Positions 1 to 11,245 of a stretch of 11,322 nt of DNA are shown piece by piece. Origin of the DNA: Candidatus Micrarchaeota archaeon (GTDB lineage Archaea; Micrarchaeota; Micrarchaeia; Micrarchaeales; Micrarchaeaceae); contig CAZBLA010000022.1 of assembly GCA_964492665.1 (NCBI GenBank), forward strand, positions 1-11,322. Direction: 5' to 3'. The position numbers were made by a program, and so were the translations under genes. How positions within the stretch are numbered: position 1 is the stretch's first letter; every line of letters begins with the position of its first letter. The notes below the pieces were generated by a model. The model searched no databases and was not told the DNA's origin. It saw only the letters and a list, made by a program, of their open reading frames with translations.

Positions 1-121
1 AGGAAGCCTTTGCCCTCAAAGTACGTTCTGAAGCCGGCATCCGCTGAACGCAATTGGCTGCACGCCGTACTTGTTAAAAAACTAAAGAATTATAGGATTT
101 GTATATGAAAGGTTGTATGCT

Positions 122-415
122 ATGTTGATTGCAAGGGTTGTAGGTTTAGTCGTTTCGACAATAAAACATAAGGCATTAATAGGCAGCAAATTACTGGTTG
201 TTCGAGAAACAGATGCCAATGGTAAACCTACCGGTATGCCCAGAGTTGCTATTGATGTAGTCGATGCCGGTGAGGGTGATTTAGTTTTGGTAGTTGAAGG
301 CTCTGCTGCACGCCAGACTAATTTCACTCGCGGCCAACCCGTTGATAGCCTTATTGTGGGTATTATCGAAACTATACAGCTCAATAGAGAGATAACATTC
401 CGTAAAGGAGTGTAA
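122..415 (+). CDS. eutN: BMC vertex (pentamer) protein, EutN/PduN/CcmL family. ORF track starts at TTG 113; ATG at 122 is more likely.
   Basis: Translation from the ATG at 122 is MLIARVVGLVVSTIKHKALIGSKLLVV...GEGDLVLVVEGSAARQ. This matches the canonical N-terminus and core of EutN/PduN/CcmL (for example CcmL MQIAKVRGTVVSTQK). The length is about 97 aa, typical of BMC-P. An AAAGG motif sits about 9 nt upstream of ATG 122. The TTG at 113 would add 3 residues. Confidence 0.85.
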   Translation: MLIARVVGLVVSTIKHKALIGSKLLVVRETDANGKPTGMPRVAIDVVDAGEGDLVLVVEGSAARQTNFTRGQPVDSLIVGIIETIQLNREITFRKGV

Positions 416-434
416 TTGTGGCAGTTGTAAATAT

Positions 435-1910
435 ATGAGCTATAATACTCATGAAATGCTAAGCGTTGGTATTGATGTGGGTACAACCACAACACAAGTT
501 GTCTTTTCTAAATTGACTATATCCGGAGCCGCACAAACAGGATTTCCTCTTGGCAAATTACCATTGAATCACTATAGACTAACTAATATAATTGATAAAA
601 AGATTATCTACCGAAGCAAGGTGCACTTTACTCCTTTAATCGGGGCAGAAGAAATTAACGCCGTTGCTTTGAAAAAAATTATTCGGCAAGAATATTTAAA
701 TGCAGGCATTGCACCTGATCAGGTAGAGACGGGAGCTGTTATTATTACAGGCGAAACTGCTAAAAAACTTAATGCAGATGCGGTCTTGGATGCTATTTCT
801 ACTTTAGCAGGTGATTTTGTAGTCACGGTAGCTGGTCCTCATTTAGAAGCCATGATATCAGGGTTAGGTTCAGGTGCAGCTGCTTTTTCAAGTGATCATT
901 ATACTACTGCTACCTGTGTAGATATAGGCGGAGGTTCAGCCAATGTTTCCATATTTCGCCAAGGTGGAATGGTAGCAACGGCAGCTATGAACTATGGAGG
1001 TCGCATTATGACAATCAATCAGCGTACTGCTGAAATTGAAAATATTTCCGATCCGGCTAAAACCATTGTCAATTATCTTGGATTACCTTTAGTGGTCGGT
1101 AGCAAAATAAATTTAGATCAATTGCGGTCTTTTACGGAATGTATGGCTGACTTAACAGTTGACTTGATTGAAGGGAAAGTTACGCCTCTATCTGATCAGC
1201 TGATGTTAACCGACCCTTTGCCGATTTCCGGTAAAGGGAGCAAACTCTTTCTGTCGGGAGGTGTTGGATACTGTTTTTATGAGCCAATACCTATTAATTC
1301 TATCAGCGATGCGACTGTTTATGGTGATGTAGGACCGCTATTAGCTGAGTCACTTCGTTTGAACTCAATCATCAAGAGTTATGATATTGAACGTCCAAGT
1401 GAAACCATGCAGGCTACGGTAATGGGAGCTAATTCTCAAACGGTAACTTTAAGTGGTAATACCATATGGGCTGAAAAAAATATTTTACCGATTAGAAATG
1501 TGCCAGTTTTACGTCTTCACTTGCCTGCCACTCTACCATCTCGGCATCAGGTAAAAAAAGCTGCGCAGGATGCGGCCGCTTTATGGGATGTTGCTTTGAA
1601 TGATAATAAATTTGCAATAGCCTTAAATTTACCTGAAGGCCTTAATTATACGTCTATTTGTGAGCTGGCAAACGGTTTGGCGGATTTCGCACTACTGCAT
1701 CTTTTGGGTGGCCAGCCGATGGTTGTTATCATTAATAGTGATTATGCGCGTGTGCTTGGTCAGACAATACATGGAGTGATGCCTAATCTGTCTTTAGTAA
1801 TTATAGATCAAGTTGATTTGAAGGAAGGTGACTATATTGACATTGGACGACCTATATTAGATGGAACGATGGTACCTTTAGCTATAAAAACATTGGTATT
1901 TTACCATTGA
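435..1910 (+). CDS. eutA: Ethanolamine ammonia-lyase reactivating factor EutA
   Basis: N-terminus MSYNTHEMLSVGIDVGTTTTQVVFSKL aligns with the enterobacterial EutA start (MNTRQLLSVGIDLGTTTTQVIFSRL). The 491-aa length and the two actin-like ATPase folds (GIDVGTTTT, VDIGGGSANV) fit EutA. It lies immediately upstream of eutBC. Confidence 0.9.
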   Translation: MSYNTHEMLSVGIDVGTTTTQVVFSKLTISGAAQTGFPLGKLPLNHYRLTNIIDKKIIYRSKVHFTPLIGAEEINAVALKKIIRQEYLNAGIAPDQVETGAVIITGETAKKLNADAVLDAISTLAGDFVVTVAGPHLEAMISGLGSGAAAFSSDHYTTATCVDIGGGSANVSIFRQGGMVATAAMNYGGRIMTINQRTAEIENISDPAKTIVNYLGLPLVVGSKINLDQLRSFTECMADLTVDLIEGKVTPLSDQLMLTDPLPISGKGSKLFLSGGVGYCFYEPIPINSISDATVYGDVGPLLAESLRLNSIIKSYDIERPSETMQATVMGANSQTVTLSGNTIWAEKNILPIRNVPVLRLHLPATLPSRHQVKKAAQDAAALWDVALNDNKFAIALNLPEGLNYTSICELANGLADFALLHLLGGQPMVVIINSDYARVLGQTIHGVMPNLSLVIIDQVDLKEGDYIDIGRPILDGTMVPLAIKTLVFYH

Positions 1911-1947
1911 ACTCTTATATAGATCATTCTACAGTCGGTATTAATTC

Positions 1948-1975
1948 TTGTTTTATTTTTAGCATGCTATATAAT
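1948..1975 (+). promoter_or_regulatory. Candidate sigma-70-type internal promoter in the 143-nt eutA-eutB gap
   Basis: TTGTTT (1948-1953) is followed by TGcTATATAAT (1965-1975), an extended -10-like element. A strong SD (GGGGGAGGAGAAAGGGG) precedes the eutB ATG. The call is by eye only, in AT-rich DNA. Confidence 0.25.
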
Positions 1976-2053
1976 ATAGAAACACTTATTTTTGTGTCAT
2001 TTTCAAATAATGAAAAAGTGTTGAATTTATGGGGGAGGAGAAAGGGGTAATTT

Positions 2054-3421
2054 ATGCTGTTGCGGACTAGGCTTTTTGGCAAAATGTATGAATTCCGAGA
2101 TATTAGAGAGCTTATGAGTAAGGCTAATGAGCCAAAATCCGGTGATGAATTGGCCGGCATTGCTGCTGTATCTGATGCGGAGAGAGTGGCAGCCAAATAT
2201 GTTTTGTCTGAAGTTACTTTAGGAGTTTTAAGGGACAACCCTGCCGTATCATACGAAAAAGACGATGTCACGCGTGTTATTGATGATGCAGTTAACGAAA
2301 CTATATATAACGAAATTAAAAGTTGGACGGTTGGAAGTTTTAGAGAATGGATACTTTCCGATCAAACCACACCTGCCATGATTAGACGAATCAGCAATGG
2401 TATCACAGGGGAAATAATATCGGCAGTCACAAAGTTGATGTCTAACCTCGACCTAATTTACGGAGCTATCAGAATTAGAGTTTCGTCGCATTGTGTTAAT
2501 ACCTCTGGCCTGCCCGGAACATTAGCAAGCCGTTTGCAGCCGAATCATCCCACCGATAGTATTGAGGGCATCCGGGCTGAAATCTACGAGGGACTTTCTT
2601 ATGGAGCAGGTGATAGTGTTATAGGCATTAATCCTGCCAATGATAGCTTGGCAAGTGTTATGAAACTGCTTGATATGACTTATAATGTTATTCAAACATG
2701 GGGAATCCCTACCCAGAACTGTGTATTAGCTCATGTAACTACACAAATGAAAGCTATGGAATCAGGGGCACCTGTAGGCTTAGTTTTTCAAAGTTTGGCC
2801 GGATCGCAAAAGGCAAATGAAAGCTTTGGTATTGATGTCGGTATGATGGACGAAGCATATAAGATGGCGCGGAAATATTGCTGGCCGGAAGGCCCTAACT
2901 ATATGTATTTTGAAACCGGTGAAGGATCAGCTTTGTCGGCCAATGCAAACAATGGCTGGGACCAACTCACTCTAGAAGCCAGAATCTATATGTTAGCTAA
3001 GCGCTGGAAACCTTATCAGGTGAATTCAGTTGTTGGTTTCATTGGTCCTGAGTACCTGTATGATGCCGTTCAAATTATACGTGCCGGTTTAGAAGATCAC
3101 TTCATGGGTAAATTAGCTGGTATCCCTATGGGTTGCGATGCTTGCTACACCAATCATGCTCGTACTAACCAAAATGATATTGAAAACTTGGCCGTATTGC
3201 TCTCTGCCGCCGGCTGCAACTATTTTATGGCCGTACCTATGGGTGATGATATAATGTTGGCTTATCAATGTACAAGCTACCATGATACACCATCGTTGCG
3301 TCAAACATTGAATTTGAAACCATTGCCCGAATTTGAGTTATGGCTGGAAGAGTTAGGACTTATAAAAAATGGCGTACTGACCGAAAAAGCAGGCGATCCA
3401 TCATTTTTCCTGAGTAAATAG
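2054..3421 (+). CDS. eutB: Ethanolamine ammonia-lyase large (heavy) subunit EutB
   Basis: At 455 aa it is near-collinear with enterobacterial EutB (453 aa). MLLRTRLFGKMYEFRDIRELMSKANEPKSGDELAGIAAVS matches MKLKTTLFGNVYQFKDVKEVLAKANELRSGDVLAGVAAAS. A strong SD lies upstream. Confidence 0.95.
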   Translation: MLLRTRLFGKMYEFRDIRELMSKANEPKSGDELAGIAAVSDAERVAAKYVLSEVTLGVLRDNPAVSYEKDDVTRVIDDAVNETIYNEIKSWTVGSFREWILSDQTTPAMIRRISNGITGEIISAVTKLMSNLDLIYGAIRIRVSSHCVNTSGLPGTLASRLQPNHPTDSIEGIRAEIYEGLSYGAGDSVIGINPANDSLASVMKLLDMTYNVIQTWGIPTQNCVLAHVTTQMKAMESGAPVGLVFQSLAGSQKANESFGIDVGMMDEAYKMARKYCWPEGPNYMYFETGEGSALSANANNGWDQLTLEARIYMLAKRWKPYQVNSVVGFIGPEYLYDAVQIIRAGLEDHFMGKLAGIPMGCDACYTNHARTNQNDIENLAVLLSAAGCNYFMAVPMGDDIMLAYQCTSYHDTPSLRQTLNLKPLPEFELWLEELGLIKNGVLTEKAGDPSFFLSK

Positions 3422-3501
3422 AATGACGCGGAGTTTCAATTTTCAGTACAATACAGCTTCATCCGCAAAAAAGGTTCCTAATTTAGCTGAAAAGGATAGT
3501 A

Positions 3502-4413
3502 ATGATTGAAAAAAATGATATTCTCAGTATTGTACAAACAGTCTTAGATGAAATCGATAAACAGCGCAGCGAAGACATATATGATCAGCCTGAGACTTCC
3601 GTGGCCACAGATTATGATAGTAAGGCAGAGGCATTTAAAATTGACCTTCCAGATCCTACCGTTCCTGAATCGCGTCATGCTTCGGGTATAGATCATCCGC
3701 CTAATCCTGAAGGCTTGCAGGCATTAATGGCATCAACTCCATATCGTATCGGAGTGGGAAGGGCTGGGCCTCGCCCTCGCACTGCTGCTATGCTGCTATT
3801 CAGGGCTGATCATGCGGTCACCCAGGATGCACTGATGCATATAGTTGATTCACAAATGCTAACGAAGTTAGGACTATTTTCGGTTAAAAGCCAGGCTAGC
3901 ATAAGTCGTAAGGAATACTTAAAAAGACCTGACTTAGGACGTAAGTTAACTGATGAGGCTAAGCGCATAATTAATGAACGGTGTATAAAAAAACCCGATG
4001 TACAAATTTTTGTCGGTGACGGGCTGAGCGGAGCCGCAATTGACAGTAACCTTCCCAAGATTATGCCTGTTATGGAACAGGGATTCAAAACAGCCGGATT
4101 ATCAATGGGAACGCCATTCTTCGTTAAGAATGCTCGGGTGGGCTTATTAAATGATGTTAACAGTATAATTGATGCCAAAGTATGTGTTATACTTATAGGC
4201 GAGAGACCTGGTCTTGCTCGGGCTGAAAGTATGAGTATTTACATGGGATATCATCCTCAGCCGAACTCAACTGACGCCGATCGCAATGTTATTTGTAATA
4301 TTTATGAAGGTGGATTCAATCCCTTAGAAGCAGGAGCATCTGCGGTTCGACTTGCACAGAGAATGATTGAGTCTCATACAAGCGGAGTTGAATTGAAAGC
4401 AGAGGGCAAATAA
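3502..4413 (+). CDS. eutC: Ethanolamine ammonia-lyase small (light) subunit EutC, with an N-terminal encapsulation-peptide-like helix
   Basis: At 303 aa its position and size fit EutC. The core motif RIGVGRAGPRPRT is present. The N-terminal amphipathic helix MIEKNDILSIVQTVLDEI is followed by an acidic/proline-rich linker, as in EutC N-terminal targeting peptides. An AAAGGA SD lies 8 nt upstream. Confidence 0.9.
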   Translation: MIEKNDILSIVQTVLDEIDKQRSEDIYDQPETSVATDYDSKAEAFKIDLPDPTVPESRHASGIDHPPNPEGLQALMASTPYRIGVGRAGPRPRTAAMLLFRADHAVTQDALMHIVDSQMLTKLGLFSVKSQASISRKEYLKRPDLGRKLTDEAKRIINERCIKKPDVQIFVGDGLSGAAIDSNLPKIMPVMEQGFKTAGLSMGTPFFVKNARVGLLNDVNSIIDAKVCVILIGERPGLARAESMSIYMGYHPQPNSTDADRNVICNIYEGGFNPLEAGASAVRLAQRMIESHTSGVELKAEGK

Positions 4414-4430
4414 AATGGAGTGGAATTAGT

Positions 4431-5087
4431 ATGTCAGTAATGGATCCGATTGTTCCAAAAATATTATCTGTTAGAATTATCCCCAATGTAAACCGCGGTT
4501 TTGCCGAAAAATTAAATTTGCGGTCTAACCAAAGAAGCTTAGGGTTGATAACCTGTAATATTGATGACTCTCTTTATGTGGCACTTGATGAAGGCACTAA
4601 AATGGCAGATGTAGAAGTGGTTTATGCTAAATCTTTCTATGCTGGATCGACTAATGCTTCGGGCCCATTATCCGGCGAAATAATCGGTATTTTTGCGGGA
4701 CCCAATCCGGTTGAAGTAGAATCCGCATTAAATGCTACCATTAGTTATTGCGAGAATGAAGCATGGTTCTATTCTGCTGATGATGATGGCAAAGATGTAT
4801 TTTTTCCACATAATATTTCTAGCACCGGCTCTTATCTTTCCAAAGTGGCCGGTATTTCTATAGGTGAGCCATTAGCATATCTCGTTGCTTGTCCGTTGGA
4901 AGCTACTTATGGAATTGACAAGGCATTAAAAGCTGCCGATGTTAAAATAATGGTTTGGTGGGAGCCTCCGTCGGAAACTAACTTCTCGGGTGGATTATTT
5001 TCAGGTACGCAAAGTGATTGTAAGGCAGCTTGCGCTGCTTTCAGCGAAGCCGTTCTGGAAGTTGTTAGTAATCCTATAAAGTTGTAG
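4431..5087 (+). CDS. eutL: BMC shell protein EutL (tandem permuted BMC domains, pseudohexameric trimer)
   Basis: The 218-aa product matches enterobacterial EutL (219 aa) along its whole length. Shared stretches include RSLGLI, EVVYA+S.YAG, TGSYLS..AGI..G.P.AYLVA.PLEATYGID.ALK.ADV and SETN.S...L.G.Q..CKAAC.AF.-AVLE. An SD GGAGTGG lies upstream. Confidence 0.9.
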   Translation: MSVMDPIVPKILSVRIIPNVNRGFAEKLNLRSNQRSLGLITCNIDDSLYVALDEGTKMADVEVVYAKSFYAGSTNASGPLSGEIIGIFAGPNPVEVESALNATISYCENEAWFYSADDDGKDVFFPHNISSTGSYLSKVAGISIGEPLAYLVACPLEATYGIDKALKAADVKIMVWWEPPSETNFSGGLFSGTQSDCKAACAAFSEAVLEVVSNPIKL

Positions 5088-5111
5088 AGTATTTTTAAGA
5101 AGGAGCTTGAT

Positions 5112-6644
5112 ATGGATAATAACTATGATTTAGATTTGCAGTCGATTCAGGAAGCACGTCGGCTATCCGAAGCTTGTTATAAAGCTCAGCAGCAATTTAT
5201 TGCTTTTAACCAAGAACAGGTTGATAATGTATGCGCTGCCATGGCCGATGCTGCCTATAATGAGTCAAGACGGTTAGGGGAAATGGCTAAGGATGAAACC
5301 GGATACGGTATTGCCCTGCATAAGATGTTGAAGAATCAGCTGGGAAGCCGCAATTTATGGGAATCAATCAAGGATATCAAAACTGTTGGCATTATACGAG
5401 AAGATCGGGTAAAACATATAGTAGAGATCGGATGGCCAATGGGAGTTGTGGCAGCACTTACACCAAGTACTAATCCTACATCTACCACAATGTATAAAAT
5501 TTTGATTTCGGTTAAGAGTCGTAACGGTATTGTTGTAGCTCCGCACCCAGCGGCATATCATTGTTCTCTTGAAACGGCTAAAATTATGTCTAAAGCAGGA
5601 GAGGCTGCAGGCATGCCGCATGGTCTGGTTAGTTGCATGTCAAAGGTTTCACTTGCAGGCACACAGGAACTAATAGGGCATCGAAGGATATCGGTTATTC
5701 TCGCAACAGGTGGTTCAGCAATGGTTAGAGCTGCGCACAGTGTTGGCAAACCGGCCTACGGGGTGGGGCCAGGCAATGCACCCTGCTATGTGGATGGAAG
5801 CGCCGATATCAAGAAGGCTGCCCATGATATTGTTTCCAGCAAGGCTTTTGATAATTCACTTATCTGTGCCACGGAACAATCCATAGTAGTAGATAAGCTT
5901 ATAGCCTCCAAATTACGGTCAGAGATGGAACATATAGGAGCTTATTTTGTAAATCTAAAGCAAAAAACTGCTTTAGCCAATGTTCTTTTTTCACCAAAAG
6001 GAGTTATAAATCGATATAGTGTAGGACAGACTCCTGAATCTCTATCTCAAATGGCTGATATTCAGGTACCTGCCGGTACTCGTATTTTGGTTGTTCCATT
6101 AAACAAAGTAGGTAAAGAGGAGCCACTCTCGCGTGAAAAATTAACTACTGTGCTGGGATGGTATGAAGTTGACGGTTGGGAATCAGGTATAGAATGCTGT
6201 ATGAAACTGGTTAACTTTGGCGGCCGAGGTCATACCATGATTATTCATGCAACTGATAAGAATATAATTATGAATTTCGGTTTAAAAATACCGGTGTTCC
6301 GCATTTTAGTTAACACAATGGGTTCCTTGGGCGCAGTTGGAGGCACAACAAGCCTTTCACCTTCATTAACACTGGGTTCAGGGGGAATCGGTCATTCGAT
6401 AACCGGCGATAATATTACAACAACGCACTTATTGAACATTAAGCGAATTGCTTATGAAACAAAGGCACCACCCAAATTAGCCGTTATAGATACAAAACCT
6501 CAAACGAATTCCTCTAATGATACTTTTAGTGGTGATGGTAACCTAAATATAGAACAGATCAAAGTTGTTGTCAAAGCTGTGGTTGAGGAAGTGCTCCGCA
6601 GAAAAGCTAATATCAATTCTATAAAGAGGAGTGATAATAAATGA
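5112..6644 (+). CDS. eutE: CoA-acylating acetaldehyde dehydrogenase EutE/PduP family, with a C-terminal extension carrying an encapsulation-peptide-like helix
   Basis: The aldehyde dehydrogenase core is present ([21 protein letters not shown]...[19 protein letters not shown]). At 510 aa it is about 40 aa longer than EutE. The N-terminus begins directly in the catalytic core (..[19 protein letters not shown] aligns to the post-EP region of PduP/EutE). The C-terminal tail ...[33 protein letters not shown] resembles the EutE N-terminal EP (DIEQVVKAVLLKM). An AAGGAG SD lies upstream. Confidence 0.85.
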
Positions 6645-6832
6645 ACGCATCTGAAAAGGTCAACCTTGATAACGCTTTATCCGGACATAATAAGGTGAAT
6701 GAGACAAGGCCTAATCGTAAAAAAGTTGAAGCCAAATCTGATGCAACGGCTATGCATAAAAGAGCGGAGGAGAATCAGCTTGAGAAACCAAGCGAGTATG
6801 CTAAAAAATATACGAAACAGAAGGAGGAATAC

Positions 6833-7138
6833 ATGGATATTCAAATGATTGCACTGGGAATGATTGAAACGAAAGGATTAGTTGCTGCTATTGAGGCTTC
6901 CGATGCCATGGTAAAATCAGCGAACGTACGTTTAATTGGCAGTGAGTATACCGGAGGTGGTTATGTAACTGTTATGGTAAGGGGCGATGTAGGCGCAGTC
7001 AAGGCTGCCACAGATGCCGGAGCTGCAGCAGCTAAACGCGTAGGCGAACTGGTTTCAGTTCATGTTATACCACGCCCTCATTCTGACGTGGAGATGATAT
7101 TACCTCATAAAACCAAAGGAAGTTATGATGAGCATTAA
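6833..7138 (+). CDS. eutM: BMC-H hexameric shell protein (EutM/PduA type). Short form from ATG 6833; an in-frame upstream start at 6641 would add a 64-aa charged N-terminal extension.
   Basis: [87 protein letters not shown] is a near-canonical PF00936 BMC domain (EutM: [79 protein letters not shown]). A strong SD AAGGAGGA lies 6 nt upstream of ATG 6833. The frame stays open back to ATG 6641, which overlaps the eutE stop as ATGA and has its own SD AAGAGGAG. Confidence 0.85.
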
Positions 7139-7168
7139 TCAGAAGGTTAAAGCCTAAAGATAATAATT

Positions 7169-7723
7169 ATGAGGCGCTTTTTCTCAGCAGCGGATATACG
7201 TAGTTTGGCAGAAAAAGATGGATGCCGATATTTGCTGCTTGCTTCTACTGATATAATTACTCCTGAAGCTTTAGATATAGCCCATGAAGTAGGTATTCAA
7301 ATTCATAGGAAGGGGGATATACCTGGCTGTGTTTCGCTGCCACCCTTAATAGGTCGGAGTACAGCTCCGGGTACACCTATTATTTTAATTAAATCAAATT
7401 CTATCCGCCTAAAGCCTTTTGCCTACGATGTGGGTCATCCGGAGATGAACATACAACTGTCTGATATAATTACTGCGGCTAACAGATCACCAATGGCAGC
7501 TGGATTTATGACGTGGAATAAAGGATTCTTTCCCTGGACTCTTGATTACTATGAAATTGACCTGGTTATTGATGGTCAACTTGAAATACGGACCGAAGGC
7601 CGAAATATTATAGGCAATAAGGGGGATGTGATCTATATCCCTAAAGGAAATAGTATTTTTTTTGGTTCACCAAGCTATGCTAAAACTTTCTATGTTACCT
7701 TTCCAGCTGAATGGGAATCCTGA
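7169..7723 (+). CDS. eutQ: EutQ-like protein: N-terminal EutQ-type module, linker, and a C-terminal cupin domain (EutQ family acetate kinase / BMC-associated cupin)
   Basis: The C-terminal roughly 90 aa (MTWNKGFFPWTLDYYEIDLVIDGQLEI...GDVIYIPKGNSIFFGSPSYAKTFYVTFPAEW) has the cupin signature typical of EutQ. The N-terminal FSAADIRSLAEKDG....DIITPEALDIAHEVGIQI resembles the start of Salmonella EutQ, as recalled (..LITANDIRAAHARGEQ...IITPEAREVAELLGFTI). The SD is weak (AAAGA). The gene lies between eutM and eutJ. Confidence 0.7.
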   Translation: MRRFFSAADIRSLAEKDGCRYLLLASTDIITPEALDIAHEVGIQIHRKGDIPGCVSLPPLIGRSTAPGTPIILIKSNSIRLKPFAYDVGHPEMNIQLSDIITAANRSPMAAGFMTWNKGFFPWTLDYYEIDLVIDGQLEIRTEGRNIIGNKGDVIYIPKGNSIFFGSPSYAKTFYVTFPAEWES

Positions 7724-7737
7724 AGATGATTATAGTT

Positions 7738-7767
7738 TTGGTTAGTATTTAAAAAGCTGTATATAAT
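7738..7767 (+). promoter_or_regulatory. Candidate sigma-70-type promoter in the 146-nt eutQ-eutJ gap
   Basis: TTGGTT (7738-7743), an 18-nt spacer, then TATAAT (7762-7767). The call is by eye only. It would drive eutJ and the downstream genes. Confidence 0.3.
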
Positions 7768-7869
7768 GTTAATACATAAGCAGTAGACAGCTATTGAATA
7801 TTTTGAATCGCCGCAATGATGTTTGTGCTATACGATAAACTTATCACGCGGTTATTATTATGAGTAAGT

Positions 7870-8805
7870 ATGAATCCGAAACTTAATGCATTATTGGCAA
7901 AGGTCGCGGCAGTTATGCATAATGACCATGATAATATTTCTATGCCTCAGCAGCTATCCGATAATTCTAACTATTGCGACAGTAAAATTTTAACCAACCC
8001 TCTTGCATTGTACAGCCGTGGCTTATCCTCTGACAAGCTTCAAAACCGAGTTCATGTTGGCATTGATATAGGAACGGCATATACCGTTTTAATTGTACTT
8101 GATGAGCGTATGCAACCTATGACCGGCGAATACCGTTTTGCTCAGTTTGTACGTGATGGTTTAGTGGTCGATTCACAAAAAGCAATAAGCATGGTGCAGA
8201 AACTAAAACATATAGCCGAAAATAGATTGGGTTTTAAGCTTAGTTCGGCTGCTACCGCTTATCCTCCCGGCGTATTGTTGACTGAAATCAAAGCTAAACA
8301 ATATGTTGTAAATTGTGCAGGTTTTGAATGCGATCAGTCCATTAATGAGCCTACAGCGGCTAACCTCGTATTACAAATAAAAAATGGGGCAATAGTTGAT
8401 ATTGGAGGAGGTACTACCGGTATTGCTGTTGTCAATGATGGACATGTTGTGTATACTGCAGATGAGCCTACGGGAGGTACGCATTTTTCTTTGGTTATTG
8501 CCGGAGCATTGAACATAGAGTTTGAAAAAGCAGAGCTTCTAAAAAAAGATCCAAAACAGCATAGCAAGATTTATCCTCTTGTGAAGCCGGTAATGGAAAA
8601 GATAGGTACTATCGTTGCAAACCACTTATTGGACCAAGATGTTAGTACCATATATTTGGTAGGTGGTACATCTTGTTTCATTGGCATAGGTAAAGTGATC
8701 CAGAAGGTAACAGGCATAACGACTATTATACCCGCTTATCCATTGTTTATTACACCATTAGGTGTAGCAATGTTTAATGCAAATAATGATAAAGCATCCT
8801 ATTAG
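7870..8805 (+). CDS. eutJ: EutJ, actin/Hsp70-fold chaperone-like protein of the EUT microcompartment. The start is uncertain (alternative in-frame ATGs at 7915 and 7942).
   Basis: VHVGIDIGTAYTVLIVLD, INEPTAANL, VVDIGGGTTGIAVV, ADEPTGGTHFSL and IYLVGGTSC match EutJ motifs (E. coli: LGVDLGTCDVV, LDEPTAVA, VVDIGGGTTGIAIV, ADEATGGHHISL, LWLAGGSC). The 311-aa ORF is about 30 aa longer at the N-terminus than typical EutJ. The N-terminus MNPKLNALLAKVAAVM is an amphipathic helix. Confidence 0.85.
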   Translation: MNPKLNALLAKVAAVMHNDHDNISMPQQLSDNSNYCDSKILTNPLALYSRGLSSDKLQNRVHVGIDIGTAYTVLIVLDERMQPMTGEYRFAQFVRDGLVVDSQKAISMVQKLKHIAENRLGFKLSSAATAYPPGVLLTEIKAKQYVVNCAGFECDQSINEPTAANLVLQIKNGAIVDIGGGTTGIAVVNDGHVVYTADEPTGGTHFSLVIAGALNIEFEKAELLKKDPKQHSKIYPLVKPVMEKIGTIVANHLLDQDVSTIYLVGGTSCFIGIGKVIQKVTGITTIIPAYPLFITPLGVAMFNANNDKASY

Positions 8806-8988
8806 ACATAAGATTAAAGTTACATTAAAATTATGAGGATCAAGCGATATGATAACTTGAGCCGCCAGCTGCATTACTGAATTTGAACAAAATTGTACAT
8901 GAAGGAATACGGCTAATTTAGTGTAGCAATAGTACATATTGCGAGCAAAGAGTAGATATATAAATTATTATCAAGAGGAGGAATATAT

Positions 8989-9621
8989 ATGGTTAATAAT
9001 TCACACCCTTTTCAATTACGGGCATATTGCTATTTAGATCGAACCCAGCCGCAGTATTCTTCTTTCATAGGGACCGTTACCCAAGGTGATTTACTAGTAC
9101 AGGGTATGGCCTCTCTATACATAGAAGTTGCCCCCGGCAGTGATGTTTTTAATTTAGTAGATATTGCTTTAAAGGCCACTGAGGCTAGACCAGGTGCTCA
9201 GATTGTTGAGCGTGAGTTCGGCATGTTTGAAGTTCACTCACAATCACAGGAAGCTGTGCTGGAAACCGGGCGTACTGTGCTGAATCGCCTTCAATTAAAA
9301 GAAACAGATAGGGTAAAACCTAAAGTCACTTCAGCTCAATTTATAACTAACGTTGACCCCTACCAAGCTCAACTACTTAATCGTTTTCGTAGAGGAAGCA
9401 TGCTGCTTGCAAGTGATACTCTTTTAGTTCTTGAAATAGCTCCTGCAGCTTATATAAACCTTGCTGCGAATGAGGCTGAAAAAAGGGCAAATATCAAATT
9501 GATTCATGTTTCCGGTGTAGGTCGTTACGGCCGAATGTGGCTGGGTGGGACGGAGTCTGAAATGTCCACAGCTAAAGCGGCAGCTATAGCAGCAATTGGA
9601 AATATCGAAGGAAAGGAATAA
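8989..9621 (+). CDS. Divergent tandem BMC-domain-like protein (putative BMC-T shell or shell-associated protein), 210 aa
   Basis: Two repeats of about 90 aa each align by eye to the canonical BMC-H pattern ([30 protein letters not shown]...GGG....[15 protein letters not shown]). Repeat 1 is LYIEVAPGSDVFNLVDIALKATEARPGAQIV....GMFEVHSQSQEAVLETGRTVL. Repeat 2 is VLEIAPAAYINLAANEAEKRANIKLIHVSGVGRYGRMWLGGTESEMSTAKAAAIAAIG. The second repeat appears to lack the final beta-strand. No PduL motifs (RHIHLS) are present. A strong SD AAGAGGAGG lies 6 nt upstream. The call rests on motif similarity only. Confidence 0.45.
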   Translation: MVNNSHPFQLRAYCYLDRTQPQYSSFIGTVTQGDLLVQGMASLYIEVAPGSDVFNLVDIALKATEARPGAQIVEREFGMFEVHSQSQEAVLETGRTVLNRLQLKETDRVKPKVTSAQFITNVDPYQAQLLNRFRRGSMLLASDTLLVLEIAPAAYINLAANEAEKRANIKLIHVSGVGRYGRMWLGGTESEMSTAKAAAIAAIGNIEGKE

Positions 9622-9701
9622 TAAGTCCAAATATACCGTATCACAACTATTATTCAATGACGATAACAATATAATTATAATTTAAAAAAGGAGAATATAC
9701 C

Positions 9702-10160
9702 ATGAAAACATTTTATACTGAACAAGATATCAGTAATATGCATTCAAAAGGTATGGTTGAAATAGAGATAGATGATGATACGGTACTAACAGATATAGCT
9801 CGAGAGAAAGCCATTGCTGTAGGATTGCACATTAACCAGGTTAAGAGGATATGCGATCATGGAAAAAAGCTTGAGACAGATATATCTCCTACTTGTATTG
9901 CCAATAAAACACTATCACTGCCTCATGATTCTACTATCTCTTCCTACAATGAATCAATGTTATCACCTGTATCTTTATCGGATCGTAATGTCCTGGATTC
10001 AAAACTAATTAACGGTATTAAATCCGCTGTTATTGCTAAACTTGGCAATGATATTGCAATGGACAATGGCCTTTTAGAACAGATAATTTCTACTGTCCTA
10101 TTACTTTTCAATTCTAAGTCTCAATCTAATCAATTAATAGACTTTTTGCAAAACTCTTGA
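9702..10160 (+). CDS. Hypothetical BMC-associated protein: EutQ-N-terminal-like module, Ser-rich linker and two encapsulation-peptide-like amphipathic helices; no catalytic domain recognized
   Basis: A strong SD AAAAAGGAGA lies 7 nt upstream. Residues 3-45 (TFYTEQDISNMHSKGMVEIEIDDDTVLTDIAREKAIAVGLHI) align with the N-terminus of the eutQ product in this same window (FFSAADIRSLAEKDGCRYLLLASTDIITPEALDIAHEVGIQI). Residues 98-115 (LDSKLINGIKSAVIAKLG) and 123-136 (GLLEQIISTVLLLF) resemble BMC encapsulation peptides (compare EutE DIEQVVKAVLLKM). It is the last gene of the co-directional cluster. Confidence 0.6.
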   Translation: MKTFYTEQDISNMHSKGMVEIEIDDDTVLTDIAREKAIAVGLHINQVKRICDHGKKLETDISPTCIANKTLSLPHDSTISSYNESMLSPVSLSDRNVLDSKLINGIKSAVIAKLGNDIAMDNGLLEQIISTVLLLFNSKSQSNQLIDFLQNS

Positions 10161-10533: not shown

Positions 10534-10851
10534 TTATCTTGAACCCTTGCAAAACTCAACATTTTGCTTTTCAACATATTCGTCGGAAGGGTCAAGTTTT
10601 TCATCTATTTTATAGAGATAAACCAGCACCCTTGCTATAGCTTGGTATAAATCGGGTGGTATTTGGATATTCACATCAAGTTTGACAAGTTCTTCGACAA
10701 GGGCACTGTTTTCTATTACAGGTATATTATTCTCTCTCGCTACGGCTCTAATTCTTTGAGCTGCTTGTCCTGAGCCGGCTGCGACAAGCTTTGGAGCATC
10801 CATACTTTTTTTGTATAGAAGTGCGGCTGCTTTTTTATCCTTTATAAGCAA
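10534..10851 (-). CDS. Small FlhB C-terminal-domain-like protein (YlqH/FhlB-domain family, type III export-apparatus switch protein paralog); apparent TTG start
   Basis: KKAAALLYKKSMDAPKLVAAGSGQAAQRIRAVARENNIPVIENSALVEELVKLDVNIQIPPDLYQAIARVLVYLYKI matches the FlhB cytoplasmic C-terminal fragment pattern (AVAL+YD....APKVVAKG.G..A..I...A.E..IP+.E...L...L......IP..LY.AVA.IL.FVY). There is no in-frame ATG; the first codon is TTG at 10851. It overlaps the upstream ORF by 17 nt. Confidence 0.65.
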   Translation of the reverse strand: MLIKDKKAAALLYKKSMDAPKLVAAGSGQAAQRIRAVARENNIPVIENSALVEELVKLDVNIQIPPDLYQAIARVLVYLYKIDEKLDPSDEYVEKQNVEFCKGSR

Positions 10852-11245
10852 AATTTCCCAGCCCTCTCAACGTAATTGATAATACAAACCCGCTGTCTTT
10901 TGTTTTATTGCCATTGGTAAGTACTGCAGGAATATCTCGTGTAAACATCGAAAGATCTACCCCCCAGCATGATTGTTTTATAACCAGATCAAATTGATTG
11001 TTTGAAAAAAAACGGTTCATTATATCGTAGTCGTTTGTAGTTGACATGCTAAATGATTTTGATATCGGCAAAGCAAGTTCCGTATTTATCTGTTCCGATT
11101 GTTTTTCAAAATTGCTGTCTTTGCTGAGTTCATAGCCTATCTTTGCCGTAACTTTACCGATATATGATATATCACTGCTGAGATCGACAAGTTGATGTTT
11201 GTAATAATCATAATGCAGCCTAAGATTATAGTTGATTTTACTCAT
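10835..11245 (-). CDS. Hypothetical protein (136 aa), upstream partner of the FlhB-C-like gene; function unknown
   Basis: It is an open frame in an AT-rich context. It is translationally coupled at both ends: TGAATG with an upstream partial ORF, and a 17-nt overlap with the downstream gene. It has no obvious SD and I recognized no family motif. Confidence 0.4.
   Translation of the reverse strand: MSKINYNLRLHYDYYKHQLVDLSSDISYIGKVTAKIGYELSKDSNFEKQSEQINTELALPISKSFSMSTTNDYDIMNRFFSNNQFDLVIKQSCWGVDLSMFTRDIPAVLTNGNKTKDSGFVLSITLRGLGNFAYKG

Follow-up and report, generated by a model that had tools for sequence, protein, structure and literature searches.

A predicted C-terminal encapsulation peptide on the type I aldehyde dehydrogenase of an EUT3-type ethanolamine utilisation cluster

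The stretch of DNA analysed here, 11,322 nucleotides of contig CAZBLA010000022.1 and in the following called the window, carries an ethanolamine utilisation gene cluster in which an aldehyde dehydrogenase (AldDh) of 510 amino acids (aa) is encoded. The last approximately 50 residues of this enzyme very probably constitute a C-terminal encapsulation peptide (EP) module on a type I AldDh, composed of a linker (residues 461-479) and a helix (residues 480-498). The tail (residues 461-510) belongs to an enzyme whose gene is located between eutL and the gene of BMC-H, a shell protein of the bacterial microcompartment (BMC). A C-terminal position of the EP is already known and is ordinary for this enzyme lineage, since published surveys give it as the usual arrangement there. 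A preliminary description of positions 6465-6644 had interpreted the same helix as the N-terminal signal of Salmonella EutE relocated to the other end of the protein, an interpretation which the data presented below do not favor.

We infer that the helix forms in vivo, that it has a binding partner and that the enzyme is encapsulated by means of it. The linker is probably disordered and would act as a flexible tether for the helix, whose hydrophobic face (I483, V486, V487, V490, V491, V494, and L495, spanning about 180 degrees) might bind shell tiles and/or other EP helices. The EutM-like BMC-H would be the likely docking partner, and the N-terminus of EutC, which carries a near-identical motif, a possible helix partner. 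In this manner the acetaldehyde-consuming AldDh and the acetaldehyde-producing ethanolamine ammonia-lyase could be co-assembled inside the shell.

Anatomy, conservation and genomic context of the C-terminal tail

The AlphaFold2 model of AldDh was built on 35 homologues and has a mean predicted local distance difference test score (pLDDT) of 82. The last strand of the catalytic core comprises residues 441-448 in this model, and the solved relatives (5j78, 3k9d, four AdhE aldehyde-dehydrogenase domains, and SucD) cease to align at query residues 447-456. The core is followed by a conserved post-core segment (residues 446-460; 6447..6491, + strand) with the family pattern xAYxxxxPPxxAMxD and a pLDDT of 82 for residues 451-460, and then by a variable linker of low conservation (residues 461-479; 6492..6548, + strand), in which residues 463-478 have a pLDDT below 50. 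The predicted EP helix (residues 480-498, with a conserved core at 483-496; 6549..6605, + strand) is delimited by the model and by conservation. The unconserved end (residues 499-510 and the stop codon; 6606..6644, + strand) corresponds at columns 502-510 to gaps in at least 96% of the relatives. Block means of the pLDDT were 82 for residues 451-460, 41-42 for residues 461-480 and 75-77 for residues 481-500, and a helix was called over residues 480-508. The layout of a linker followed by a helix, as given in the preliminary description, is borne out by the model, and its coordinates are exact (residue 452 is encoded from nucleotide 6465, residues 480-498 by nucleotides 6549-6605, and the stop codon occupies 6642-6644). 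An extension of about 45 residues had been described; the extension exists, but it reaches about 60 residues past the last core strand, and the first 15 of these (AYExxxPPxxAMxD) are conserved. The linker is rich in Asn, Ser, Thr, Asp, and Gly, not in Ala and Pro, which is in line with the GC content of the window of about 40%.

Comparison with the closest relative (locus L084, with an AldDh 85% identical) revealed a 1-nt deletion that shifts the AldDh of the window past the ancestral stop codon. The last approximately 11 residues (about 500-510) are lineage-specific and were gained by read-through of the old stop, the spacer and the ribosome-binding site. As a result, the TGA of the AldDh gene overlaps the ATG of the next open reading frame (ORF), the long form of BMC-H (ATGA). 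Should the long start of BMC-H be used, this overlap may couple the translation of the AldDh cargo to that of the shell protein. An RNA or regulatory element at 6465-6644 was also considered and dropped: Rfam gave no match in the entire window, no terminator-like sites were present near this region, promoter-like matches near it (3 versus 1.4 +/- 1.1 expected) were not meaningful, and its minus strand contains no ORF of at least 60 aa.

Conservation was expressed as the frequency of the commonest residue per column over 116 unique tails. High values in the post-core segment (A447 0.99, Y448 0.92, P453 0.96, P454 0.98, A457 0.89) and in the helix (V490 1.00, V487 0.98, R/K488 0.95, E493 0.91, I/V486 0.85) flank a linker in which the top residue does not exceed 0.37 and many gaps occur; between 23 and 41 residues separate the PP motif from the helix core in the relatives. 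The helix of the relatives follows the motif [ED]-[VIL]-x-x-[IV]-V-[RK]-x-V-[ILV]-x-E-[VIL], after which a short unconserved end is found. All 120 database homologues with at least 60% identity share this tail architecture, and it is likewise present in each of the 72 genome loci whose tail is readable to the stop codon. The AldDh tail has several of the features by which EPs are defined (Kinney, 2012; Aussignargues et al., 2015), among them an extension of an enzyme from a BMC locus, a predicted helix of about 15-20 residues and a poorly conserved linker.

The preliminary description had further called the helix amphipathic. A helix is indeed predicted, but its amphipathicity is moderate and falls short of significance in the hydrophobic-moment (muH) test: a muH of 0.475 for residues 479-496 is equalled by 6% of shuffled sequences, and a muH of 0.346 for residues 480-498 by 31%. 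The median muH of the best 14-mers in the relatives' tails is 0.655 and exceeds the 99th percentile for 14-mers of the catalytic cores, while the window with 0.508 is at the low end of the family because Val replaces small or polar residues. Since the hydrophobic-moment test is not significant, the case is built on conservation and context and not on amphipathicity; on these two grounds the tail is beyond chance.

The context is that of microcompartment loci. In about 70 tail-bearing genome loci the AldDh gene lies beside shell genes, either in the EUT3 order or in a SPU6 arrangement, and the few exceptions are short or truncated contigs. More distant relatives (33-57% identity) were collected by a search of 50%-identity cluster representatives and inspected as sequences. 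They fall into four groups. In the first, of 485-530 aa, a variable linker leads to a terminal amphipathic helix; members of the second, of 433-475 aa, stop at most about 25 residues past the HLLNIKR motif; the third consists of AdhE-type fusions with about 870 aa, and the fourth of longer forms with a small extra domain. The three tail-bearing distant relatives sampled for genomic context (P0122, P0138, and P0185) all adjoin BMC shell genes, whereas none of the three tail-less ones sampled (P0161, P0155, and P0186; a small sample) has a BMC gene within 8 kb. The AdhE and SucD structures are without the tail as well. The extension is thus found in BMC-associated homologues and absent from non-BMC ones, with about 70 positive loci and only three negative ones.

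This distribution also bears on the explanation that the tail belongs to the structure of the dehydrogenase itself, where it would serve in oligomerisation or as a lid over the cofactor, and has nothing to do with microcompartments. In its favor, the TIGR02518 profile takes in the tail, and residues 446-460 are conserved and confidently modelled (pLDDT 82), for which reason the beginning of the tail is likely to pack against the core. However, the AdhE domains, SucD, 5j78 and many of the relatives of 433-475 aa have no more than about 25 residues left after the HLLNIKR motif, the linker is variable both in length and in sequence, and the tail tracks the BMC context (3/3 with it versus 0/3 without it, in a small sample). 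The tail is therefore not a conserved catalytic-domain element of non-BMC enzymes, whose sequences and structures end earlier, and we consider a purely structural role extremely improbable. An origin of the tail from the AdhE linker was rejected too, as no similarity past residue ~448 was seen by eye in the AdhE alignments.

Identity of the enzyme and origin of its signal

The top NCBIfam match of AldDh is TIGR02518 (EutH_ACDH, IPR013357) with 549.6 bits, residues 6-493 of the protein being aligned to positions 1-486 of the 488 of the profile. The profile therefore runs through the helix to residue 493, which we counted in favor of an EP. The AdhE model gave 501.6 bits (cut-off 951), and the EutE/PduP-type model PRK15398 (IPR012408) gave 230.8 bits and missed its threshold of 403. 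Identity to E. coli EutE is 31%, and the relatives in the PDB are 5j78, 3k9d, AdhE aldehyde-dehydrogenase domains and SucD. Residue C252, the catalytic Cys, is invariant in the 35 homologues and aligned with the Cys of the AdhE motif ICASEQ. Judged from these sequence comparisons, the enzyme is an acetylating acetaldehyde dehydrogenase of the type I, AdhE-like BMC branch and not an orthologue of Salmonella or E. coli EutE with a moved EP; the identification as EutE in the preliminary description has to be abandoned. Because 549.6 bits falls under the curated TIGR02518 cut-off of 620.1, the profile scores further indicate a relative from the same branch as the EUT2-type TIGR02518 enzymes, not a strict EUT2 equivalog.

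At the other end of the protein there is no N-terminal signal. E. coli EutE is aligned with an offset of +19 residues (query residue 42 corresponds to EutE residue 61), because of which the N-terminal MNQQDIEQVVKAVLLKM of EutE has no counterpart in AldDh. The eutL stop codon (5085-5087) is in frame with the AldDh ATG and lies 8 codons upstream, and no ATG, GTG, or TTG is present in frame between the two, so that a hidden upstream start is excluded. That the protein opens directly in the catalytic core, as had been described, is confirmed by both observations, and an N-terminal EP reached through an alternative upstream start was looked for and rejected on account of the in-frame stop. For annotation this implies that the enzyme and Salmonella EutE should be kept apart, and that the start codon of the AldDh gene can stay as it is.

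Close mimicry of the EutE EP had been claimed for the helix. We compared the E. coli EutE EP with all 10,971 six-frame 13-mers of the window using BLOSUM62, and the best ungapped match of the AldDh helix (against DIEQVVKAVLLKM; 6/13 identical, score 24) was tied for the top of these 13-mers. The resemblance is thus real in its best register, but the matches 'IEQ' and 'VVKAV' occur in registers that are 3 residues apart. It is one argument for the idea that AldDh is a EutE-type enzyme whose N-terminal EP was moved to the C-terminus, an arrangement that would be unusual within EUT loci; a second argument is that EUT3 loci bear the motif both at the N-terminus of EutC and at the C-terminus of AldDh, so that it appears to work at either end. 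Against this, a match of 13 amphipathic residues, as seen with the EP of E. coli and Salmonella EutE, cannot tell homology from convergence, the AdhE-like and TIGR02518 scores are far above that of the EutE/PduP model at an identity to EutE of 31%, and the tail occurs in every close relative and in many at 34-57% identity, with no lineage-specific event. In the surveys, the C-terminal EP stands at the base of an entire major AldDh branch and is read as an independent acquisition. A relocation from EutE is, on this evidence, very unlikely.

The published classification agrees with this conclusion. According to Aussignargues et al. (2015; PMC4594438), only the AldDh of EUT1 has its EP at the N-terminus, and those of the remaining EUT types have it at the C-terminus. 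Type I AldDh, which is dominated by EUT2 and belongs to IPR013357, has a C-terminal EP, and the C-terminal EP is placed at the base of the entire major AldDh branch (Sutter et al., 2021). A C-terminal EP was also reported for the SPU6 AldDh (PMC11585597); the SPU6 locus of that study, from Chloroflexi GWB2_54_36, is our locus L046, and its tail aligns with the AldDh tail of the window. The statement that C-terminal EPs are not the norm for EUT loci is hence the reverse of what the surveys say (PMC4594438; Sutter et al., 2021; for SPU6, PMC11585597). Neither does a relocated targeting module find support, as the enzyme is not a Salmonella-type EutE and the tail is carried by the entire clade (120 homologues, 72 loci), and therefore no event took place in this lineage.

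Several points weigh against the assignment of the tail as an EP. The equivalog threshold of TIGR02518 was missed (549.6 versus 620.1 bits), and the helix of the window is only moderately amphipathic, with a muH of 0.35-0.51 depending on the boundaries and 6-31% of shuffled sequences reaching as high. A study of the eut genes of Listeria monocytogenes predicts N-terminal encapsulation helices on EutC, EutD, and EutE (PMC8547011), and its prediction for EutE conflicts with the systematic surveys; the Listeria structure 3k9d aligns only to query residue 447. Finally, when experiments on C-terminal EPs of type I AldDhs were sought in the searchable literature, only papers on CcmN and carboxysomes came up, and the EP function of the AldDh tail therefore rests on the analogy with N-terminal EPs and with CcmN. 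With these points considered, we still regard a C-terminal EP as the best explanation of the tail. Its discovery value is small, as it represents a further case, fairly divergent and of low GC content, of a C-terminal EP on a type I AldDh in an EUT3-type locus, although the tail could add one C-terminal targeting tag for engineering.

Similar helices and the surrounding gene cluster

The top five matches of the EutE-EP scan include, along with the C-terminal helix of AldDh, the N-terminal helix of EutC (DILSIVQTVLDEI) and the C-terminus of a conserved ORF of 152 aa. The EP-like helix of EutC (residues 4-21, KNDILSIVQTVLDEIDKQ; 3511..3564, + strand) was the fifth-best six-frame match and has a muH of 0.454, which is reached by 3.6% of shuffled sequences. 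By its motif, which is that of the AldDh tail, it would be a second, EP-like cargo signal. In 26 non-redundant locus pairs, the window included, 3-8 of 13 residues are identical between the EutC N-terminal and the AldDh C-terminal helices (for example DIQAIVRAVLAEL and ELKAIVRAVIEEL). The mean score was 31.8 within loci and 31.2 between loci, in a comparison that is biased by the motif regular expression. There is no within-locus excess and therefore no sign of pairwise co-evolution or recent copying of the two helices. The shared motif fits a common binding site or a pairing of the helices, as far as can be suggested from sequence. That the motif on EutC, AldDh, and EUT1 EutE goes back to one portable peptide module, which recombination would have carried from protein to protein and from one terminus to the other, seems unlikely to us; we give it a low probability because homology and convergence cannot be told apart on 13 amphipathic residues. 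The alternative given by Sutter et al. (2021) is that the two EP positions go back to two independent ancient acquisitions.

The helix of AldDh might also serve mainly in cargo-cargo condensation, where it would pair with the helices of EutC and of the 152-aa ORF and thereby nucleate the enzyme core. This possibility is a refinement of the EP interpretation and is compatible with it. EPs are known to make proteins aggregate and to drive core formation (PMC11585597; PMC4594438), the 26 non-redundant locus pairs show the same 13-residue motif N-terminally on EutC and C-terminally on AldDh, and the 152-aa ORF ends in a similar helix. The similarity within loci is, however, no higher than that between loci (31.8 versus 31.2). 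We hold condensation as the principal function to be possible but doubtful, and retain the broader assignment of the tail as an EP.

The 152-aa ORF (9702-10160, + strand) has no Pfam match, and in NCBIfam only a weak match to the EutQ N-terminus was obtained (E = 5e-4); homology to the N-terminus of the EutQ of the window was rejected, since BLASTP gave no alignment. In most of the fetched EUT3 and SPU6 loci the BMC-T(dp) gene is likewise followed by this ORF. P0098, an AldDh of 612 aa with the domain fused in front, has an N-terminus that matches the first approximately 50 residues of the ORF (MKTFYTEQDISNMHSKGMVEIEIDDDTVLTDIAREKAIAVGLHI; E = 2e-16). By eye, this small domain is also found C-terminally in several type I AldDhs of 527-665 aa (...DFVxExDVRxAxxxGxKIxIGPxTIITPxARDLA...). 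AldDhs seen with the domain are P0123, P0125-P0127, P0135, P0137, and P0134, and in P0134 a domain like that of the ORF opens an AldDh with a C-terminal PduL-like sequence (likewise by eye). The ORF ends in EP-like helices, of which LLEQIISTVLLLF ties for the top EutE-EP match. The product may be a cargo-shell adaptor or scaffold.

Family profile searches and the ORF list showed that all genes from 113 to 10160 are located on the + strand and form an ethanolamine utilisation microcompartment cluster. It starts with the shell pentamer BMC-P (EutN/CcmL; 113..415; PF03319, E = 5.4e-27), followed by EutA (435-1910), EutB (2054-3421), EutC (3502-4413), and the EutL-type shell protein BMC-T(sp) (4431..5087; PF00936). 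After AldDh (5112..6644; top NCBIfam match TIGR02518) come the EutM-like shell hexamer BMC-H (6641..7138; NF012018 EutM with 139.8 bits, PF00936 on residues 71-146), EutQ (7169-7723), EutJ (7870-8805), the CcmP/CsoS1D-like shell protein BMC-T(dp) (8989..9621; NF053796 with 252.6 bits, orthologues with PF27545 CsoS1D_N) and the 152-aa ORF. The published description of EUT3 lists EutABC and one each of BMC-P, BMC-H, EutL-type BMC-T(sp), and BMC-T(dp), the last being the hallmark of this type (Sutter et al., 2021, Supplementary Data 2), and the closest relative of the EUT3 AldDh is the SPU6 AldDh (Sutter et al., 2021). This gene set is complete in the window, and the locus may extend past it. A genome-wide search for relatives of AldDh retrieved only EUT3-like and SPU6-like loci at 55-69% identity, among them the published SPU6 locus L046. 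The same gene order was found in assemblies of Anaerolineae, Caldilineae, Desulfobacterales/Desulfosarcina, and Spirochaetaceae. The nearest relative of the AldDh, 85% identical, is encoded on a 7.3-kb contig of assembly GCA_006240935.1. By gene set, gene order and AldDh kinship, the basis of our assignment, the cluster (EutN, EutA, EutB, EutC, EutL, AldDh, BMC-H, EutQ, EutJ, BMC-T(dp)) belongs to the published EUT3 type; the criterion of the authors themselves is a locus scoring based on hidden Markov models (BMC Caller).

The long BMC-H ORF opens at 6641, and its BMC domain starts from M65 (6833), ahead of which a conserved AAGGAGG is found. The gene may encode a Lys/Glu/Asn-rich N-terminal extension of 64 residues (6641-6832), and similar upstream stretches are present in L084 (3822-4013), in L001 (11507-11722) and in about 20 other EUT3-type loci. 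Spacers of at least 150 nt between AldDh and BMC-H, from 26 non-redundant loci, contain 38 in-frame stops versus 116 and 120 in the other two frames, and many of the extensions, that of the window included, have basic patches (KPKRTRPK, KPRRRRRTTKK). Against a coding function, the positions at which the window and L084 differ fall on all three codon positions (23/14/21), gene callers annotate the shorter protein (101 aa in L001), and SPU6-type loci mostly have short spacers. The stretch may be either a real extension or a spacer.

Further genes were noted within a related locus and next to the cluster. In L001, a metagenome-assembled genome of Anaerolineales (JABTUK010000002.1), restriction-modification-like genes (2803-3852 and 5590-8048) lie amid eutA, eutB, and eutC of an otherwise syntenic EUT3 locus. 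They encode a PDDEXK_4 nuclease, an N6_N4 methyltransferase with an EcoO109I-like endonuclease, and a further methyltransferase; L002 is likewise interrupted. Directly downstream of the cluster, the window encodes a stand-alone protein resembling the C-terminal domain of FlhB (10534-10851, - strand; PF01312; TIGR00789 with 80.7 bits at a cut-off of 117.35), and a 136-aa ORF without a family match (10835-11245, - strand) is also present there. The two genes hint at a source with flagella and a low GC content, which would set it apart from the Anaerolineae relatives.

Comparison with known systems

With the N-terminal EP of EUT1 EutE (MNQQDIEQVVKAVLLKM in E. coli and Salmonella) and with that of PduP, the tail of the window AldDh shares the acetylating role of the enzyme and a short helix with a hydrophobic face, which is 6/13 identical in the case of EutE. 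It differs from them in being located at the opposite terminus of an enzyme from a different major AldDh branch (31% identity to EutE). Moreover, the N-terminal EPs of EutE and PduP have been tested experimentally, whereas the tail of the window AldDh is known from sequence and a model. CcmN of the beta-carboxysomes is alike in that a variable linker leads to a C-terminal helix of about 17 residues, by which the shell is recruited to the cargo (PMC4594438). CcmN is an unrelated protein of an anabolic compartment, and its EP is experimentally proven.

The window resembles the EUT3 loci (Sutter et al., 2021) in its shell protein set, in EutABC and in its SPU6-like AldDh, and its gene order is identical to that of the Anaerolineae and Desulfobacterales loci. 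It differs from them by its low GC content and by an AldDh whose top match is 69% identical among genomes and 85% identical among metagenomes.

The closest correspondence is with the C-terminal EP of the type I BMC AldDhs (IPR013357/TIGR02518: EUT2, GRM1, GRM6, SPU6, and EUT3), with which the AldDh of the window has in common the position of the EP, the construction from a linker and a helix, and the enzyme branch. Its particular features in comparison with this branch are the Asn/Ser/Thr-rich linker, an unusually Val-rich and less amphipathic helix, and about 11 extra residues gained by read-through. The helix motif aligns directly with that of the SPU6 and EUT3 orthologues, and the TIGR02518 score below the cut-off fits a position of the EUT3 and SPU6 enzymes as a sister group to those of EUT2.

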